Positions 945-51,020 of a stretch of DNA of 64,000 nt are shown here, piece after piece; the stretch's first letter is position 1, and the number at the start of each line of letters is the position of its first letter. Source of the stretch: Escherichia coli (GTDB lineage: Bacteria > Pseudomonadota > Gammaproteobacteria > Enterobacterales > Enterobacteriaceae); the NCBI RefSeq assembly GCF_003018255.1, contig NZ_CP027440.1; one strand, written 5' to 3'. Position numbers and translations under genes: made by a program. The notes under the pieces are model-generated. The model saw nothing but the letters and a program-made list of their open reading frames with translations. It was not told where the DNA came from and did not search any database.

Positions 945-3227
945 TTACATAGATTGAGTGAAGGTACGAGTAATAACGTCCTGCTGCTGTTCTTTAGTCA
1001 GCGAGTTGAAACGTACTGCGTAGCCAGATACACGGATGGTCAGCTGCGGATATTTTTCCGGGTTTTCCATCGCGTCGAGCAGCATTTCACGGTTCATCAC
1101 GTTAACGTTCAGGTGCTGACCACCTTCGATGGACGCTTCGTGGTGGAAGTAACCATCCATCAGACCAGCCAGGTTGGTCTTACGAACTTCGTCGTCTTTA
1201 CCCAGTGCGTTCGGAACGATAGAGAAGGTGTAGGAGATACCATCTTTAGCGTAAGCAAATGGCAGTTTAGCAACGGAAGTCAGAGAGGCTACTGCACCTT
1301 TCTGGTCACGACCGTGCATCGGGTTAGCACCCGGTCCGAACGGCGCGCCAGCACGACGACCGTCTGGGGTGTTACCAGTTTTCTTACCATACACAACGTT
1401 AGAAGTGATGGTCAGAACAGACTGAGTCGGGATAGCGTCACGGTAGGTGTGCAGTTTCTGAATTTTCTTCATGAAACGTTCTACCAGGTCAACAGCCAGG
1501 TCATCTACACGCGGATCGTTGTTACCAAACTGCGGGTATTCGCCTTCGATTTCGAAGTCGATAGCCAGACCGTCTTCGTCACGAATCGGTTTAACTTTCG
1601 CATATTTGATTGCAGACAGGGAGTCAGCAGCAACGGACAGACCAGCGATACCACACGCCATGGTGCGGATAACGTCACGGTCGTGCAGCGCCATCAGAGA
1701 GGCTTCGTAGCTGTACTTGTCGTGCATGTAGTGGATGATGTTCAGTGCAGTGATGTACTGTTTAGCCAGCCAGTCCATGAAGTGATCCATGCGCTCCATC
1801 ACTTCATCGTAGTTCAGGAGATCGCCTTTGATCGGCTCAGACTTCGGACCAACCTGCATTTTCAGTTTTTCGTCAACGCCGCCGTTGATTGCGTACAGCA
1901 TGGTTTTCGCCAGGTTTGCACGCGCACCGAAGAACTGCATTTGTTTACCAACGATCATCGGGCTTACGCAGCAAGCGATAGCGTAGTCATCGTTGTTGAA
2001 GTCCGGACGCATCAGGTCATCGTTCTCATACTGCAGAGAAGAGGTGTCGATGGACACTTTAGCAGCGAATTTCTTGAAGTTCAGCGGCAGTTTTTCGGAC
2101 CACAGAATGGTCATGTTCGGTTCCGGAGACGGACCCATGGTGTACAGGGTGTTCAGGAAACGGAAGCTGTTTTTGGTAACCAGGGTACGACCGTCGAGGC
2201 CCATACCACCGATAGATTCGGTTGCCCAGATCGGGTCGCCAGAGAACAGTTCATCGTATTCCGGAGTACGCAGGAAGCGAACCATACGCAGTTTCATGAC
2301 CAGGTGGTCAACCATTTCCTGCGCTTCTTGTTCGGTGATCTTGCCAGCTTTCAGGTCACGTTCGATGTACACATCCAGGAAGGTGGAGGTACGACCGAAG
2401 GACATTGCAGCACCGTTCTGAGACTTAACAGCAGCCAGGTAGCCGAAGTAAGTCCACTGGATAGCTTCCTGAGCGTTGGTAGCCGGACCAGAGATGTCGT
2501 AGCCGTATTTCGCAGCCATTTCTTTCATCTGACCCAGAGCGCGGTGCTGTTCAGCGATTTCTTCGCGCAGACGGATAGTCTGTTCCAGGTTTACGCCGTT
2601 TTCCAGATCAGCCTGCAGAGAGGTGAACTGAGCGTATTTGTCTTTCATCAGATAGTCGATACCGTACAGCGCAACGCGACGGTAGTCACCGATGATACGA
2701 CCACGGCCATAAGCATCTGGCAGACCGGTCAGAACACCGGATTTACGGCAACGCAGGATGTCCGGAGTGTAAACGTCGAACACGCCCTGGTTGTGAGTTT
2801 TACGGTATTCAGTGAAGATTTTTTTGATCATCGGGTCCAGTTCGCGGTTGTACGCTTTGCAGGAACCTTCGATCATTTTGATACCACCGAACGGGATAAG
2901 AGCACGTTTCAGCGGAGCTTCAGTCTGCAGACCAACAACTTTTTCCAACGCTTTGTTGATGTAGCCAGCGTCGTGAGAGGTGATGGTGGAAGCAACAGCG
3001 GTGTCAAAGTCAACTGGCGCGTGAGTGCGGTTTTCCAGTTTAACGCCTTCCATTACTTTGTCCCACAGGGTGGTGGTCGCTTCAGTAGCGCCAGCCAGGA
3101 AGGACTCGTCACCCTCGTACGGAGTGTAGTTTTTCTGAATGAAGTCACGGACGTTTACTTCATTCTGCCAGTCACCTTTGGTAAAACCTTCCCAGGCTGT
3201 GGCTAACTTTTCATTAAGCTCGGACAT
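945..3227 (-). CDS. pflB: pyruvate formate-lyase (formate C-acetyltransferase 1)
   Basis: 760-aa ORF; translation matches PflB over full length including the C-terminal glycyl-radical region. Confidence 0.97.
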
Positions 3228-21271: not shown

Positions 21272-21424
21272 TTTCACTTCACGACACTCCAGCCAATTTT
21301 GGGAGGAGTGTCGTACCGTTACGATTTTCCTCAATTTTTCTTTTCAACAATTGATCTCATTCAGGTGACATCTTTTATATTGGCGCTCATTATGAAAGCA
21401 GTAGCTTTTATGAGGGTAATCTGA

Positions 21425-22318
21425 ATGGAACAGCTGCGTGCCGAATTAAGCCATTTACTGGGCGAAAAACTCAGTCGTATTGAGTGCGTCAATGAAAAAG
21501 CGGATACGGCGTTGTGGGCTTTGTATGACAGCCAGGGAAACCCAATGCCGTTAATGGCAAGAAGCTTTAGTACGCCCGGAAAAGCCCGACAACTGGCATG
21601 GAAAACCACCATGCTGGCAAGAAGTGGGACTGTCCGTATGCCGACTATTTATGGTGTGATGACGCATGAAGAACACCCCGGCCCCGATGTCCTGCTACTG
21701 GAGCGGATGCGTGGTGTTTCGGTGGAGGCACCAGCCCGAACACCAGAACGCTGGGAACAACTCAAAGATCAAATCGTTGAAGCCTTACTGGCCTGGCACC
21801 GTCAGGACAGTCGCGGTTGCGTCGGCGCGGTCGACAATACTCAGGAAAATTTCTGGCCCTCATGGTACCGGCAACATGTTGAAGTGCTATGGACCACGCT
21901 CAATCAGTTCAATAACACCGGTCTAACGATGCAGGATAAGCGGATCCTGTTTCGTACTCGCGAATGTCTCCCGGCATTATTTGAAGGCTTTAACGACAAT
22001 TGTGTGCTGATTCACGGTAACTTCTGTTTACGCAGCATGCTGAAAGATTCGCGCAGCGATCAGTTACTGGCGATGGTCGGGCCGGGACTAATGCTTTGGG
22101 CACCGCGGGAATACGAACTGTTCCGACTAATGGATACTTCTCTGGCGGAAGATTTGCTCTGGAGTTACCTGCAACGCGCGCCAGTGGCGGAGTCGTTCAT
22201 CTGGCGGCGTTGGTTGTATGTGTTATGGGATGAAGTTGCGCAACTGGTTAATACCGGACGATTTAGTCGGCGCAACTTCGATCTGGCATCAAAATCACTC
22301 TTGCCGTGGCTCGCCTGA
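21425..22318 (+). CDS. ycbJ: uncharacterized kinase-like protein YcbJ
   Basis: 297-aa ORF; matches YcbJ; 3' end overlaps elyC on the opposite strand. Confidence 0.88.
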   Translation: MEQLRAELSHLLGEKLSRIECVNEKADTALWALYDSQGNPMPLMARSFSTPGKARQLAWKTTMLARSGTVRMPTIYGVMTHEEHPGPDVLLLERMRGVSVEAPARTPERWEQLKDQIVEALLAWHRQDSRGCVGAVDNTQENFWPSWYRQHVEVLWTTLNQFNNTGLTMQDKRILFRTRECLPALFEGFNDNCVLIHGNFCLRSMLKDSRSDQLLAMVGPGLMLWAPREYELFRLMDTSLAEDLLWSYLQRAPVAESFIWRRWLYVLWDEVAQLVNTGRFSRRNFDLASKSLLPWLA

Positions 22319-23074
22319 CGAACTTTTTAGCCACTGCCAGATACGGCCAAGCGTTTCATAGCCAACACGATCGCTATGCATCAACCAGACCGGAGAAGGG
22401 ATTGCCCGTTCCCACGGGTTAAGCGGCGAGTCGATGGCCAACTGATTCGCCGGGGCTGGCAGCGGATTTAACCCTTCCTGCTGAAAAAAGATCATCGCCC
22501 GCGGCAAATGAGACGCGGATGTCACCAGCAGGAAAGGGGCGTCACCAATCGCCTGTTTCACTGCCGCAGCTTCTTCTTCGGTATCTTTTGGCAAATCCAG
22601 AGTGATAATTTGCTCGCGCGGCACGCCCAGCGATTGCGCAACTCGGGCACCTACTTCGGCTGTACTCACCGTATTGGTTTTTGCTACGCCTCCCGTGAAG
22701 ATCAGTTTTGATCCCGGATTTTCGCGCCATAAGCGAATACCTTCATTCAGGCGGGGCAGACTGTTATTGATTAAATTCGAGCTTGGTGCCCACTGCGGGT
22801 TCCAGGTATAACCACCTCCGAGCACCACGATATAGTCCACTTTTTGCGAATTATTCCATGTCGGATAGGTGCTTTCGATGGGACGCAGCAGGCGGTCGGC
22901 TACCGGTTGCAAACTCAATAACAAGAGCGCCAGCCACCCAATGCTAATAAAAATCTTCCCGGTTTTTTGAAAACGGCTAAACCACAGCAGCGCCAGGCCA
23001 GCGCCAATAATCAACAACATTAGCGGAAGTGGCAGCAACATATTGCCAATCACTTTTTTCAGTGTAAAAAGCAT
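22295..23074 (-). CDS. elyC: envelope biogenesis factor ElyC (DUF218)
   Basis: 259-aa ORF with N-terminal transmembrane helices; matches ElyC (YcbC). Confidence 0.9.
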   Translation of the reverse strand: MLFTLKKVIGNMLLPLPLMLLIIGAGLALLWFSRFQKTGKIFISIGWLALLLLSLQPVADRLLRPIESTYPTWNNSQKVDYIVVLGGGYTWNPQWAPSSNLINNSLPRLNEGIRLWRENPGSKLIFTGGVAKTNTVSTAEVGARVAQSLGVPREQIITLDLPKDTEEEAAAVKQAIGDAPFLLVTSASHLPRAMIFFQQEGLNPLPAPANQLAIDSPLNPWERAIPSPVWLMHSDRVGYETLGRIWQWLKSSSGEPRQE

Positions 23075-30490: not shown

Positions 30491-30502
30491 GTGCACAGAA
30501 AA

Positions 30503-30521
30503 CCCCCAGCTAGGCTGGGGG
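30503..30521 (+). repeat. IS200 left-end subterminal hairpin
   Basis: Perfect 8-bp GC stem cccccagc-tag-gctggggg. Confidence 0.6.
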
Positions 30522-30558
30522 TTCCGGAAAGCTTTCAGCTTTGAGCCAGTTATTAAAA

Positions 30559-30627
30559 CCCCTTTTGATTTGTTAAAACACCTTGCGGTCTGGCAACTGC
30601 AAGTGTCAAACAAGAAATCAAAAGGGG
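30559..30627 (+). promoter_or_regulatory. long-range stem sequestering the tnpA ribosome-binding site
   Basis: ccccttttgatt (30559-30570) is exactly complementary to aatcaaaagggg (30616-30627), which contains the Shine-Dalgarno immediately upstream of tnpA ATG 30634; matches the known translational occlusion in IS200. Confidence 0.55.
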
Positions 30628-30633
30628 GTCCCA

Positions 30634-31092
30634 ATGGGGAACGAAAAGAGCTTAGCGCACACCCGATGGAACTGTAAATATCACATAGTTTTTGCGCCAA
30701 AATACCGAAGACAAGTGTTCTACAGAGAGAAGCGTAGAGCAATAGGCAGTATTTTGAGAAAGCTGTGTGAGTGGAAAAGCGTACGGATTCTTGAAGCTGA
30801 ATGCTGTGCAGATCATATCCATATGCTTGTGGAGATCCCGCCCAAAATGAGTGTATCCGGCTTTATGGGATATCTGAAAGGGAAAAGCAGTCTGATGCTT
30901 TACGAGCAGTTTGGTGATTTGAAATTCAAATACAGGAACAGAGAGTTCTGGTGCAGAGGGTACTACGTCGATACGGTGGGTAAGAACACGGCGAAGATAC
31001 AGGATTACATAAAGCACCAGCTTGAAGAGGATAAAATGGGAGAGCAGTTATCGATTCCCTATCCGGGCAGCCCGTTTACGGGCCGTAAGTAA
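30634..31092 (+). CDS. tnpA: IS200/IS605-family transposase TnpA (HUH Y1 single-strand transposase)
   Basis: ORF 30583..31092; start moved to ATG 30634 (MGNEKSLAHTRWNCKYHIVFAPKYRR...) giving 152 aa; HUH motif within DHIHMLVEIP; near-identical to Salmonella IS200 TnpA as recalled. Confidence 0.95.
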   Translation: MGNEKSLAHTRWNCKYHIVFAPKYRRQVFYREKRRAIGSILRKLCEWKSVRILEAECCADHIHMLVEIPPKMSVSGFMGYLKGKSSLMLYEQFGDLKFKYRNREFWCRGYYVDTVGKNTAKIQDYIKHQLEEDKMGEQLSIPYPGSPFTGRK

Positions 31093-43445: not shown

Positions 43446-43462
43446 TACTTTTGAGCCAAAAT

Positions 43463-43609
43463 GCCGGATGCGACGCTTGACGCGTCTTATCAGGCCTACA
43501 AGTCCGTTGAAAATGCTGGTTTTGTAGGCTGGATAAGGCGTTCACGCCGCATCCGGCAGCCGTGCCCAAATGCCTGATGCGACGCTTGACGCGTCTTATC
43601 AGGCCTACA
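43463..43609. repeat. REP elements forming a BIME (three copies in alternating orientation)
   Basis: gccggatgcgacgcttgacgcgtcttatcaggcctaca (43463-43500), inverted copy 43524-43560, near-identical copy 43571-43609; a partial fourth copy follows at 43631-43648; lies between convergent pepN and ssuB. Confidence 0.85.
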
Positions 43610-43650
43610 ATCCGTTGAAACTGCTGGTTTTGTGTGCCACATCCGGCATA

Positions 43651-47319: not shown

Positions 47320-47887
47320 GGGCATTACCTCGCAGAGACAGAAGGTCAGGAACCTGAACATCGCGGCGGTGCAACGCCTGCCAGAAAGTTTCTAGCGCGG
47401 TATCAAGACGAGTTTGCAGATTTGGCGTGAACTGGGGTTTGTGTTGGTAATCAATTACTTGCGAGTCATCGGCAAACACGCCGTGCAGGATCTCCTGGGC
47501 TTTCAGCGTACTTAAAACTGGCTTAAGGGCATAATCGACCGCCAGCAGATGGGCCACGGTGCCGCCTGTCGCCAGCGGCAGCACCACTTTGCCTTGCAAC
47601 GCACGTTCTGGCAGCAGGTCGAGCAGGGTTTTCAGCGCGCCGGAATAGGCGGCTTTATACACAGGCGTGGCGACAATCAGCCCATCGGCCTGTTGCAGCT
47701 GTTCGGTGAAGGTCTTGAGTGCCGGACTATCGAAACGAGCATAAAGCAGATCTTCCGGGACGAAGTTTTGCAAATTCCAGTGATAAACCTCTACATCCAG
47801 GCCATTTAGTTTTTCCCGCGCATATTCCAGCAAGGAGCTGGAGCGAGAAGGAAAGCGAGGACTACCCGCCAGGGTGATGACACGCAT
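47312..47887 (-). CDS. ssuE: NADPH-dependent FMN reductase
   Basis: 191-aa ORF; matches SsuE. Confidence 0.96.
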   Translation of the reverse strand: MRVITLAGSPRFPSRSSSLLEYAREKLNGLDVEVYHWNLQNFVPEDLLYARFDSPALKTFTEQLQQADGLIVATPVYKAAYSGALKTLLDLLPERALQGKVVLPLATGGTVAHLLAVDYALKPVLSTLKAQEILHGVFADDSQVIDYQHKPQFTPNLQTRLDTALETFWQALHRRDVQVPDLLSLRGNAHA

Positions 47888-48123
47888 ACTCTCTCCTTAT
47901 AACCAATTGTTCTTGTTTTGTTAACATTGATAACAATTCGGTCAGTCTGACAGAGGGCGTCCGCGAGTCGAAATGATTTATCTGAGGAAGAAAAGCCAAA
48001 AAAAGCATAAAAAAAGCGCAATAAGAAAACGTTTGCTATTTATTGCCGCAGGTCAATTCCCTTTTGGTCCGAACTCGCACATAATACGCCCCCGGTTTGC
48101 ACACCGGGAATCCAGGAGAGTTC
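47888..48123. promoter_or_regulatory. divergent ssuE / pyrD promoter region
   Basis: 236-bp spacer between divergently transcribed ssuE and pyrD; individual operators not resolved by eye. Confidence 0.4.
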
Positions 48124-49134
48124 ATGTACTACCCCTTCGTTCGTAAAGCCCTTTTCCAGCTCGATCCAGAGCGCGCTCATGAGTTTACTTTTCAGCAATT
48201 ACGCCGTATTACCGGAACGCCGTTTGAAGCACTGGTGCGGCAGAAAGTGCCTGCGAAACCTGTTAACTGCATGGGCCTGACGTTTAAAAATCCGCTTGGT
48301 CTGGCAGCCGGTCTTGATAAAGACGGGGAGTGCATTGACGCGTTAGGCGCGATGGGATTTGGATCGATCGAGATCGGTACCGTCACGCCACGTCCCCAGC
48401 CAGGTAATGACAAGCCGCGTCTCTTTCGTCTGGTAGATGCCGAAGGTTTGATCAACCGTATGGGCTTTAATAATCTTGGCGTTGATAACCTCGTAGAGAA
48501 CGTAAAAAAAGCCCATTATGACGGCGTTCTGGGTATTAACATCGGCAAAAATAAAGATACGCCGGTGGAGCAGGGTAAAGATGACTATCTGATTTGTATG
48601 GAAAAAATCTATGCCTATGCGGGATATATCGCCATCAATATTTCATCGCCAAATACCCCAGGATTACGCACACTGCAATATGGCGAAGCGCTGGATGATC
48701 TCTTAACCGCGATTAAAAATAAGCAAAATGATTTGCAAGCGATGCACCATAAATATGTGCCGATCGCAGTGAAGATCGCGCCGGATCTTTCTGAAGAAGA
48801 ATTGATCCAGGTTGCCGATAGTTTAGTTCGCCATAATATTGATGGCGTGATTGCAACCAATACCACGCTCGATCGTTCTCTGGTTCAGGGAATGAAAAAT
48901 TGTGATCAAACCGGTGGCTTAAGTGGTCGTCCGCTTCAGTTAAAAAGCACAGAAATTATTCGCCGCTTGTCACAGGAATTAAACGGTCGCTTACCGATCA
49001 TCGGTGTTGGCGGCATTGATTCGGTTATCGCTGCGCGTGAAAAGATTGCTGCGGGGGCCTCACTGGTGCAAATTTATTCTGGTTTTATTTTTAAAGGTCC
49101 GCCGCTGATTAAAGAAATCGTTACCCATATCTAA
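48124..49134 (+). CDS. pyrD: dihydroorotate dehydrogenase (quinone)
   Basis: ORF 48097..49134; start moved to ATG 48124 ([10 protein letters not shown]...) preceded by CAGGAGAG; 336 aa. Confidence 0.96.
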
Positions 49135-49196: not shown

Positions 49197-49307
49197 ATAT
49201 TCATCGCTGTTGCTTATTTAGACATTTTGTACTTTTATTGTTGAGGTTATTAAGCGAAGCGACAATGGATTGTGTTGCTGCGGTTTTATAGGGTAGGGGA
49301 GAGGCAG

Positions 49308-49850
49308 ATGCGAATTAAACCAGACGATAACTGGCGTTGGTATTACGATGAAGAGCACGATCGAATGATGCTCGATTTAGCCAATGGTATGCTATTTCGC
49401 TCACGTTTTGCGCGCAAAATGTTGACTCCAGATGCCTTTTCTCCCGCAGGCTTTTGCGTTGACGACGCCGCGCTCTATTTCTCATTTGAAGAAAAATGCC
49501 GCGATTTTAATTTATCTAAAGAACAAAAAGCCGAACTGGTGCTTAATGCGCTGGTAGCAATTCGTTATCTCAAACCGCAAATGCCGAAAAGCTGGCATTT
49601 TGTTTCCCATGGTGAAATGTGGGTGCCCATGCCGGGCGATGCGGCCTGCGTTTGGTTGAGCGACACTCACGAGCAAGTCAATTTGCTGGTCGTTGAATCT
49701 GGCGAAAATGCCGCACTATGCCTGCTGGCACAACCCTGCGTTGTTATTGCGGGTCGCGCGATGCAGCTGGGCGACGCCATCAAAATCATGAACGACAGGC
49801 TGAAACCGCAGGTTAATGTTGACAGCTTCAACCTCGAACAGGCAGTCTAA
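49308..49850 (+). CDS. zapC: cell division protein ZapC (FtsZ-ring stabiliser)
   Basis: ORF 49272..49850; start moved to ATG 49308 ([19 protein letters not shown]...) preceded by AGGGGAGAGG; 180 aa. Confidence 0.9.
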
Positions 49851-50956
49851 CGCGTCAGCTTAAGCGCAGTCTTCGGTACACAGCTACAGCAAAGAATGGT
49901 GCCATCATCGCCCATTGCTGATTTTTTCAGCGGCGTGACTTCGCCTTCTAAAAGCTGAACACGGCAACTTCCACAAATGCCCGCGCGGCAAGAATAAGGG
50001 ATACGAATTCCCTGATTTTCTAATTGCTCCAGCAACACCTGCTGGTTATTTCCACGAAATGCCTGTCCCTGCCAGTCAATATCTACATTTGCGTCCGGTT
50101 GTTGCGTGATGTTGACGGTATCATCAGCGGCGGCTGCGCCGTAAATTTTAGCCGGAGCCGTTGCCAGAACTTCCACCTCATCGCCAACGCGAATTACGCC
50201 GCTATTACGGGCAATTAAATTCTGACCAAAATCGACATCGCCGTTATCCTGGGCAGTGCGGAAAGATTGCAATGTTTTTAATGGTTCGCCTGCCGGATGT
50301 TTTTGCCCTTTTTCTGGACTGACGGTGGTGAAAATACAGCGGCTACAAGGTTTAACCACATCAAACACCACATCACCAATGCGAATCACTTTCCAGCTAT
50401 CTTCTTCCCAGGCTGACGCGCCGGAAACCACCAGATTGGGGCGGAATTGCTCCATTTTTACACTGGCCGGACAACGTTGTTGGAGATCACGTAACGAGGC
50501 TTCGTTAGCAAGAAGGTAAGGATAGCCATCAGCAAATGACAGGGGTACAGTGTTGTGGCGTTTCACGCGCCGCGTCATTTGTGGCCCCACCCAGCGCAAC
50601 TGCACTTCGCGGGAGAAAAATCCACTTAGCCATTTGTTGATCGCGTCTGGTGCAATTCGCGCGGTAAAATGTGTGCCCCAAACTTCGGTTGGTGCGTCTT
50701 GTGTGGCGAAATCAGCAAAACGAACATATGCGCTACTGCCATCTGGTGCGGTGAGATGCAAGCCATCATGCACAGGTGAAGGAGTAAACCGTACCATCTG
50801 GGGAAACTGGCGAGCGGTAATAAACGTACCGTCAGGTTCCGTGATCATAAAGATGCGATCGAAGGCCAGACCACTGACATCTGCCAGGGCATGTGTAAGA
50901 CCAATGCCGCGCATCGATTTAACAGGATGAATAAAAAGCCGGGTTAATGTCGCCAC
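49847..50956 (-). CDS. ycbX: MOSC-domain molybdoenzyme with C-terminal 2Fe-2S ferredoxin domain
   Basis: 369-aa ORF; C-terminal CRAGICGSC ferredoxin motif; matches YcbX; stop codon overlaps the zapC stop. Confidence 0.92.
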
Positions 50957-50992
50957 GGTGCGGTCCTCAAATGAAAATAAGCCCTCAACTTT

Positions 50993-51020
50993 ATGACATG
51001 ACGCGCTTATTAGCTATAAT
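50993..51020 (+). promoter_or_regulatory. candidate sigma70 promoter upstream of rlmL
   Basis: ATGACA, 16-bp spacer, TATAAT (51015-51020); by eye only. Confidence 0.25.

Follow-up and report, generated by a model that had tools for sequence, protein, structure and literature searches.

The four-base tail-to-tail overlap of zapC and ycbX in Escherichia coli and the probable termination of each transcript within the partner gene

The zapC-ycbX junction and the genes that meet there

How do two genes that face each other end their transcripts when no DNA lies between them? This question is raised by zapC and ycbX in the 64-kb stretch of E. coli DNA analysed here (the window). Positions 49840-49859, read directly from the sequence, are aggcagtCTAAcgcgtcagc, and the tetramer CTAA at 49847-49850, an unstranded feature, holds the stop codons of both genes. 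The zapC coding sequence (+ strand, 49308..49850) ends with TAA at 49848-49850, as seen in the sequence and in the list of open reading frames (ORFs), and the ycbX coding sequence (- strand, 49847..50956) ends with TAG, the reverse complement of CTA at 49847-49849, so that the low end of its ORF is 49847. The two coding sequences overlap tail to tail by 4 bases (49847-49850), and their stop codons share 2 bases (49848-49849). The original prediction, that a zapC TAA at 49848-49850 overlaps a ycbX CTA at 49847-49849 on the opposite strand, was exact in its coordinates.

The zapC gene encodes 180 aa from an ATG start to the TAA stop (ORF list, RefSeq, Pfam and PDB), and its mechanical ORF begins upstream of the annotated ATG, at GTG 49272. 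The ycbX gene encodes 369 aa (ORF list, RefSeq and Pfam), and a check of its start codon placed the GTG at 50954-50956, preceded by a GAGGA Shine-Dalgarno sequence. In Pfam, ZapC matched ZapC_N and ZapC_C, and YcbX matched MOSC_N, MOSC and the 2Fe-2S ferredoxin family Fer2. Furthermore, the chain in the ZapC crystal structure 5FO3 consists of the same 180 residues with the C-terminal end LEQAV, and 5E1L is also a full-length match. Pfam, the PDB entries for ZapC and RefSeq together uphold the gene names and strands that had been assigned from the letters alone, and the earlier label of YcbX as a molybdoenzyme stands up to its MOSC-domain architecture in Pfam and no further.

E. coli JNE23-011 matches 49200-51000 at 100% identity and window positions 1-50000 at 99.99%, and RefSeq annotates zapC and ycbX in that strain with the identical 4-base overlap. 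A search with 49200-51000 found the zapC-ycbX region in 5425 of 5426 complete E. coli genomes. In K-12 MG1655, RefSeq places zapC at 1005952..1006494 and ycbX at complement 1006491..1007600, again with the identical 4-base overlap. An Rfam search returned no family at the zapC-ycbX junction.

Convergent overlaps in E. coli have been counted at 58, with 4 bp as a characteristic length, and the four-base sequences CTAA, TTAA, CTAG and TTAG give the jump at length 4 among them (Lillo and Krakauer, 2007, Biol Direct, PMC2174442). The zapC-ycbX pair matches this class exactly: two genuine protein genes on opposite strands lie tail to tail, both frames end inside one [C/T]TA[A/G] tetramer, here CTAA with one stop per strand, and the stops occupy homologous positions in orthologous loci (74 of 80 species genomes). 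There is no difference of substance from the published class, and what is added here is the conservation in 74 of 80 genomes and the finding that CTAG was unseen among them. Within the 64-kb window, two of the six convergent gene pairs overlap; besides zapC-ycbX, ycbJ (+ strand, 21424-22317) and elyC (- strand, 22294-23073) overlap convergently by 24 nt at 22294-22317.

It could be argued that the overlap is only apparent, one of the ORFs ending elsewhere or being no real gene, and an ORF ending at a different stop was what the original prediction had named as its refutation. The stop codons unambiguously end both ORFs, each protein has a full-length match to curated Pfam families, crystallised ZapC has the identical last residue, and the orthologues in 80 species have their ends at homologous positions. 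Since both stops are homologous in 74 of the 80 Enterobacteriaceae genomes, neither ORF ends at another stop. We regard an annotation artefact as close to impossible, and mis-annotation of the zapC or the ycbX stop was rejected on the orthologue ends, the YcbX tails and the end of crystallised ZapC. The zapC-ycbX junction is a real and ordinary overlap, of a type that was annotated and described previously.

Several other features of the window were recorded. Near the locus, ssuE adjoins pyrD (47887-48124), the fimbrial genes that lie upstream of pyrD in K-12 (ycbU, ycbV and ycbF) are absent, and an Rfam PyrD leader was matched upstream of pyrD at 48056-48129. Further away, an IS200C transposase gene lies between mukB and ldtD (30634-31092), with an Rfam match to STnc490 in front of it (30501-30624), and the pepN-ssuB spacer contains a repeat of about 70 nt twice (43455-43633), the copies being 94% identical and overlapping an Rfam match to the REP-derived naRNA4 (43527-43605).

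Conservation of the shared stop tetramer

A ZapC probe retrieved 80 species-level genomes, all of them Enterobacteriaceae, including Escherichia, Citrobacter, Salmonella, Klebsiella, Kosakonia, Kluyvera, Buttiauxella, Cedecea, Atlantibacter and others. In every one of the 80, zapC and ycbX are convergent neighbours, and the exact 4-base overlap is present in 74. The tetramer in these 74 genomes always has the form YTAR (TTAA in 60, CTAA in 7 and TTAG in 7) with an invariant central TA, and CTAG was found at the zapC-ycbX junction in none of the 80. Variation is limited to C or T in the first base and A or G in the last, and these are the changes that preserve both stops. The codons of the last 2-3 YcbX residues are highly variable (TR, AR, KG, KS, ES, AP, EA, GN and more). 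In the remaining 6 of the 80 genomes the genes do not overlap and are separated by a gap of 6-70 nt.

Because the central TA is common to both stops, a substitution at either base abolishes both stops together. If the stops were lost, ZapC would be longer by 35 residues (next stop 49956-49958) and YcbX by 59 (next stop 49667-49669). Once formed, the tetramer would be kept by purifying selection, as either central-base change would remove both stops. It would cost neither protein: its first base falls on the third, synonymous position of the Val codon that ends ZapC, and its last base would only demand a pyrimidine at the end of the last codon of YcbX. Selection on protein length, acting through this 'double lock' on TA, would account for the conservation, and no special function is needed. 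We infer that conservation of the tetramer reflects selection on protein length and not regulation.

Rare read-through variants of ZapC were found among the best 120 homologues listed, all from Enterobacteriaceae and at least 73% identical. Two of these, P0003 and P0075 (216 and 229 aa), come from metagenome assemblies and have the shared stop tetramer mutated. In the 216-aa protein TAA is changed to GAA (...LEQAV-E-RVSLRAVFGT...SKS), the tail agrees with the 35 predicted residues at all but one position, and the cluster contains 2 member sequences compared with 2085 in the cluster of the normal 180-aa E. coli protein. Both variants may be sequencing errors or real stop-loss alleles. A different kind of change was observed in E. 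coli TW10573 (NZ_CP127035.1; locus L096, 609-2688), where an IS1A stands in place of the 3' part of zapC and zapC carries a pseudogene annotation; the ycbX ORF, whose normal stop is gone, has an annotated length of 392 aa and not 369.

A representative protein search combined with contig look-ups reached ZapC relatives of 29-60% identity. Around these genes the pyrD-zapC-(ycbX)-rlmL neighbourhood persists, and the junction is an 8-nt gap, a 38-nt gap or a 43-nt overlap, or ycbX is absent. The 43-nt overlap between zapC and a ycbX homologue lies at 3007-3049 of locus L090, where ZapC is 40% and YcbX 52% identical. These observations show that the 4-base overlap of zapC and ycbX is not obligatory.

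Transcript ends on the two strands

As there is no intergenic DNA, there can be no terminator between zapC and ycbX. The original prediction had concluded that no room is left for separate terminators; the lack of intergenic DNA is correct, but the problem that it implied is absent, since terminators need not be intergenic, and in convergently overlapping genes they must sit in coding sequence (PMC2174442). A consensus scan found no terminator-like site at the zapC-ycbX junction, and the TERMITe supplements contain no zapC or ycbX entries. For K-12, the 3' end mapping that had been proposed as a check already exists in the literature (Adams et al., 2021, eLife, PMC7815308), and it places the + strand end 92 nt inside ycbX. 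The published 3' ends and Rho data are from K-12 and not from the present strain; coordinates were converted by the difference between K-12 and the window, 956644, and the sequence around the 3' end is the same, the 61-nt flank of the published K-12 end being identical to window 49892-49952.

On the + strand, K-12 Term-seq reports a 3' end at 1006586 with a read count of 937 and the class 'antisense ycbX' (Supplementary file 1 of PMC7815308), which corresponds to window position 49942, within ycbX and 92 nt beyond the zapC stop. The read count is low, and 'ycbX' occurs only once in this file, which spans three growth conditions. The end is not classed as 'primary' only because that class needs a distance of < 50 bp from the gene end (PMC7815308). 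Further downstream, a Rho-dependent termination region for zapC read-through extends over approximately 49943..50090 (+ strand), with the K-12 peak at 1006647, which is window 50003. There, upstream/downstream coverage was 159/33 without bicyclomycin (BCM) and 179/269 with BCM, giving a Rho score of 7.24 with p 1.1e-24 (Supplementary file 2 of PMC7815308). These regions were defined by DirectRNA-seq with and without BCM, and the score positions are coarse, resting on 800-nt windows (PMC7815308). The RNA past the zapC stop is untranslated and has a C/G ratio of 1.2-2.2, a moderate excess of C over G.

The published end lies 4 nt after a stem-loop in the 3' untranslated RNA of zapC, predicted by folding at 49905..49938 (+ strand) and antisense to 12 residues' worth of ycbX codons. 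Its fold of -14 kcal/mol (z -1.56) is not exceptional, and it is followed by GUGACUUC with no U-tract. All 12 of its 12 pairs are formed only in the three E. coli sequences; 10-11 pairs remain in other Escherichia, 7-10 in Citrobacter, and down to 2 of 12 in more distant genera. The stem-loop was rejected as a conserved or canonical intrinsic terminator on its z of -1.56, the loss of pairing beyond Escherichia and Citrobacter and the missing U-tract, and is treated here as incidental coding sequence, not as a conserved element. It is probably a barrier to exonuclease trimming, and the end at +92 would then be a trimmed product of Rho termination.

On the - strand, the 3' untranslated RNA of ycbX runs antisense through zapC over approximately 49350..49846, with a Rho peak at K-12 1006040, which is window 49396. 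Upstream/downstream coverage was 91/23 without BCM and 72/79 with BCM, giving a Rho score of 4.34 with p 7.4e-8 (Supplementary file 2 of PMC7815308). No discrete - strand Term-seq 3' end is reported in zapC in the K-12 data of Adams et al. (2021, PMC7815308), and the consensus scan found no - strand terminator-like site between 49200 and 49847. Going down from the ycbX stop, the first such site is a hairpin in the pyrD-zapC spacer (49188-49167), and this hairpin is probably the pyrD terminator region. The RNA past the ycbX stop is untranslated, and its C/G ratio of 1.0-1.5 before the Rho peak represents a weak enrichment of C over G.

In the published K-12 data, BCM raised read-through downstream of the stop on both strands (PMC7815308). 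Taken together, the effects of BCM and the published 3' end indicate that both mRNAs stop inside the coding sequence of the partner. We propose that each mRNA would extend, untranslated and antisense, into the partner gene, where mainly Rho would end it. The zapC transcript would have its steady-state 3' end about 92 nt downstream of the stop, after the modest stem-loop, with a Rho peak about 150 nt downstream, and the ycbX transcript would be ended inside zapC, in a Rho region with its peak about 450 nt downstream. We hold with considerable confidence that the locus is a standard 4-base tail-to-tail overlap, held by selection, in which each transcript is ended in the partner gene mainly by Rho.

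This arrangement resembles a system of Rho termination followed by trimming to a protective stem-loop. Precise 3' ends located just after stem-loops without U-tracts have been described as the steady-state ends of Rho-dependent transcripts (Dar and Sorek, 2018, PMC6061677). With the system of Dar and Sorek (2018) and Adams et al. (2021, PMC7815308), zapC-ycbX is alike in its BCM-sensitive read-through on both strands and in a + strand end that follows a stem-loop lacking a U-tract, with the Rho signal further downstream. It differs from the system in that the zapC stem-loop is of ordinary stability and poorly conserved and that no discrete 3' end is reported for ycbX.

Termination might instead be intrinsic or driven by collision and not depend on Rho, through a hairpin in the ycbX coding sequence or head-on collisions of RNA polymerases. 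The intrinsic candidates are the stem-loop at 49905-49938 and a palindrome at 49997-50013 followed by GATTTTCT, which would be Rho-independent and possibly bidirectional. The discrete Term-seq end 4 nt after the stem-loop is in keeping with the first. For the second, the consensus scan detected two weak terminator-like hairpins with T-rich tails inside the + strand Rho region, at 49997-50013 and 50029-50045, and the palindrome at 49997-50013 also scores on the - strand. However, the stems are short (5-6 pairs) or without a U-tract (GUGACUUC after 49905-49938), no Term-seq end is reported in the K-12 data for the 49997-50045 hairpins or, on the - strand, within zapC, and the hairpin at 49905-49938 is not conserved. 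Collision is a published model for convergent E. coli pairs (bioRxiv 10.1101/2022.10.23.513370), but the collision-type bidirectional terminators described there are Rho-independent, and here BCM strongly raises read-through on both strands. We therefore consider it improbable that intrinsic and collision-driven termination, taken jointly, account for the two ends.

The zapC-ycbX pair can also be compared with the bidirectional terminators that bioRxiv 10.1101/2022.10.23.513370 relays from Ju et al. (2019) for convergent E. coli genes. The two are alike in that two transcripts must be stopped within a short stretch. Bidirectional intrinsic terminators have a G+C-rich palindrome with A- and T-tracts at the junction, and at zapC-ycbX there is none, the nearest palindrome (49997-50013 in the scan) having 5 pairs and lying 147 nt inside ycbX. 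In contrast to that Rho-independent class, again as the preprint relays it, zapC-ycbX is without an intergenic element or a symmetric stem-loop at the junction, and in the published data its termination is Rho-sensitive, BCM acting on both strands.

The excludon listing and the meaning of the overlap

The pair has also been named in the 'excludome' of MG1655, where zapC-ycbX is among 165 convergent excludons seen in no fewer than 50% of 58 RNA-seq samples (ExcludonFinder, NAR 2025, PMC12288877); ycbJ/elyC is named as an excludon in the same work. An excludon in this sense is a pair of adjacent genes on opposite strands with overlapping transcripts. A regulatory reading would hold that selection favours the overlap and the reciprocal antisense 3' regions because transcribing one gene represses its partner, either by transcriptional interference or by RNase III cleavage of the RNA duplex. 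The transcripts do overlap, according to published data (Term-seq and Table 1 of ExcludonFinder), and reach into the partner gene (PMC7815308), and convergent adjacency and overlap are conserved across Enterobacteriaceae. However, any pair of overlapping coding sequences fits the definition, so that the listing carries no functional information. At zapC-ycbX the transcript overlap, although backed by Term-seq, follows trivially from the coding overlap, and the mutually exclusive expression that defines excludons is putative only. Furthermore, six Enterobacteriaceae lineages have gaps of 6-70 nt, in distant lineages the genes are 8 or 38 nt apart, overlap by 43 nt, or ycbX is missing, and Rho lowers read-through to about 20-25% of upstream coverage. 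We found no reciprocal expression data or functional link between ZapC and YcbX, and among the papers searched only the ExcludonFinder survey names both genes.

These results make a regulatory excludon unlikely at this locus; if it were true, it would couple a stabiliser of the Z-ring to an enzyme that detoxifies base analogues. A further proposal, in which mutual antagonism of ZapC and YcbX is what maintains the locked stop tetramer together with the reciprocal antisense 3' regions, is slightly more doubtful still, and such a functional excludon would link Z-ring stabilisation to the detoxification of mutagenic N-hydroxylated bases. By far the best explanation, in our judgement, is that zapC and ycbX are independently transcribed and functionally unrelated convergent genes.

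Much of this was already known: K-12 annotation has shown the overlap for years, a description of its class dates from 2007, the 3' ends with their Rho dependence were published in 2021, and the excludon listing followed in 2025. The zapC-ycbX pair illustrates how an overlap can persist, as one substitution in the TA lengthens two proteins, and the junction is fixed in 74 of 80 genomes while the tail of YcbX drifts freely. It also illustrates that missing intergenic space is no bar to termination, because the untranslated RNA past each stop is a substrate for Rho within the opposing gene.
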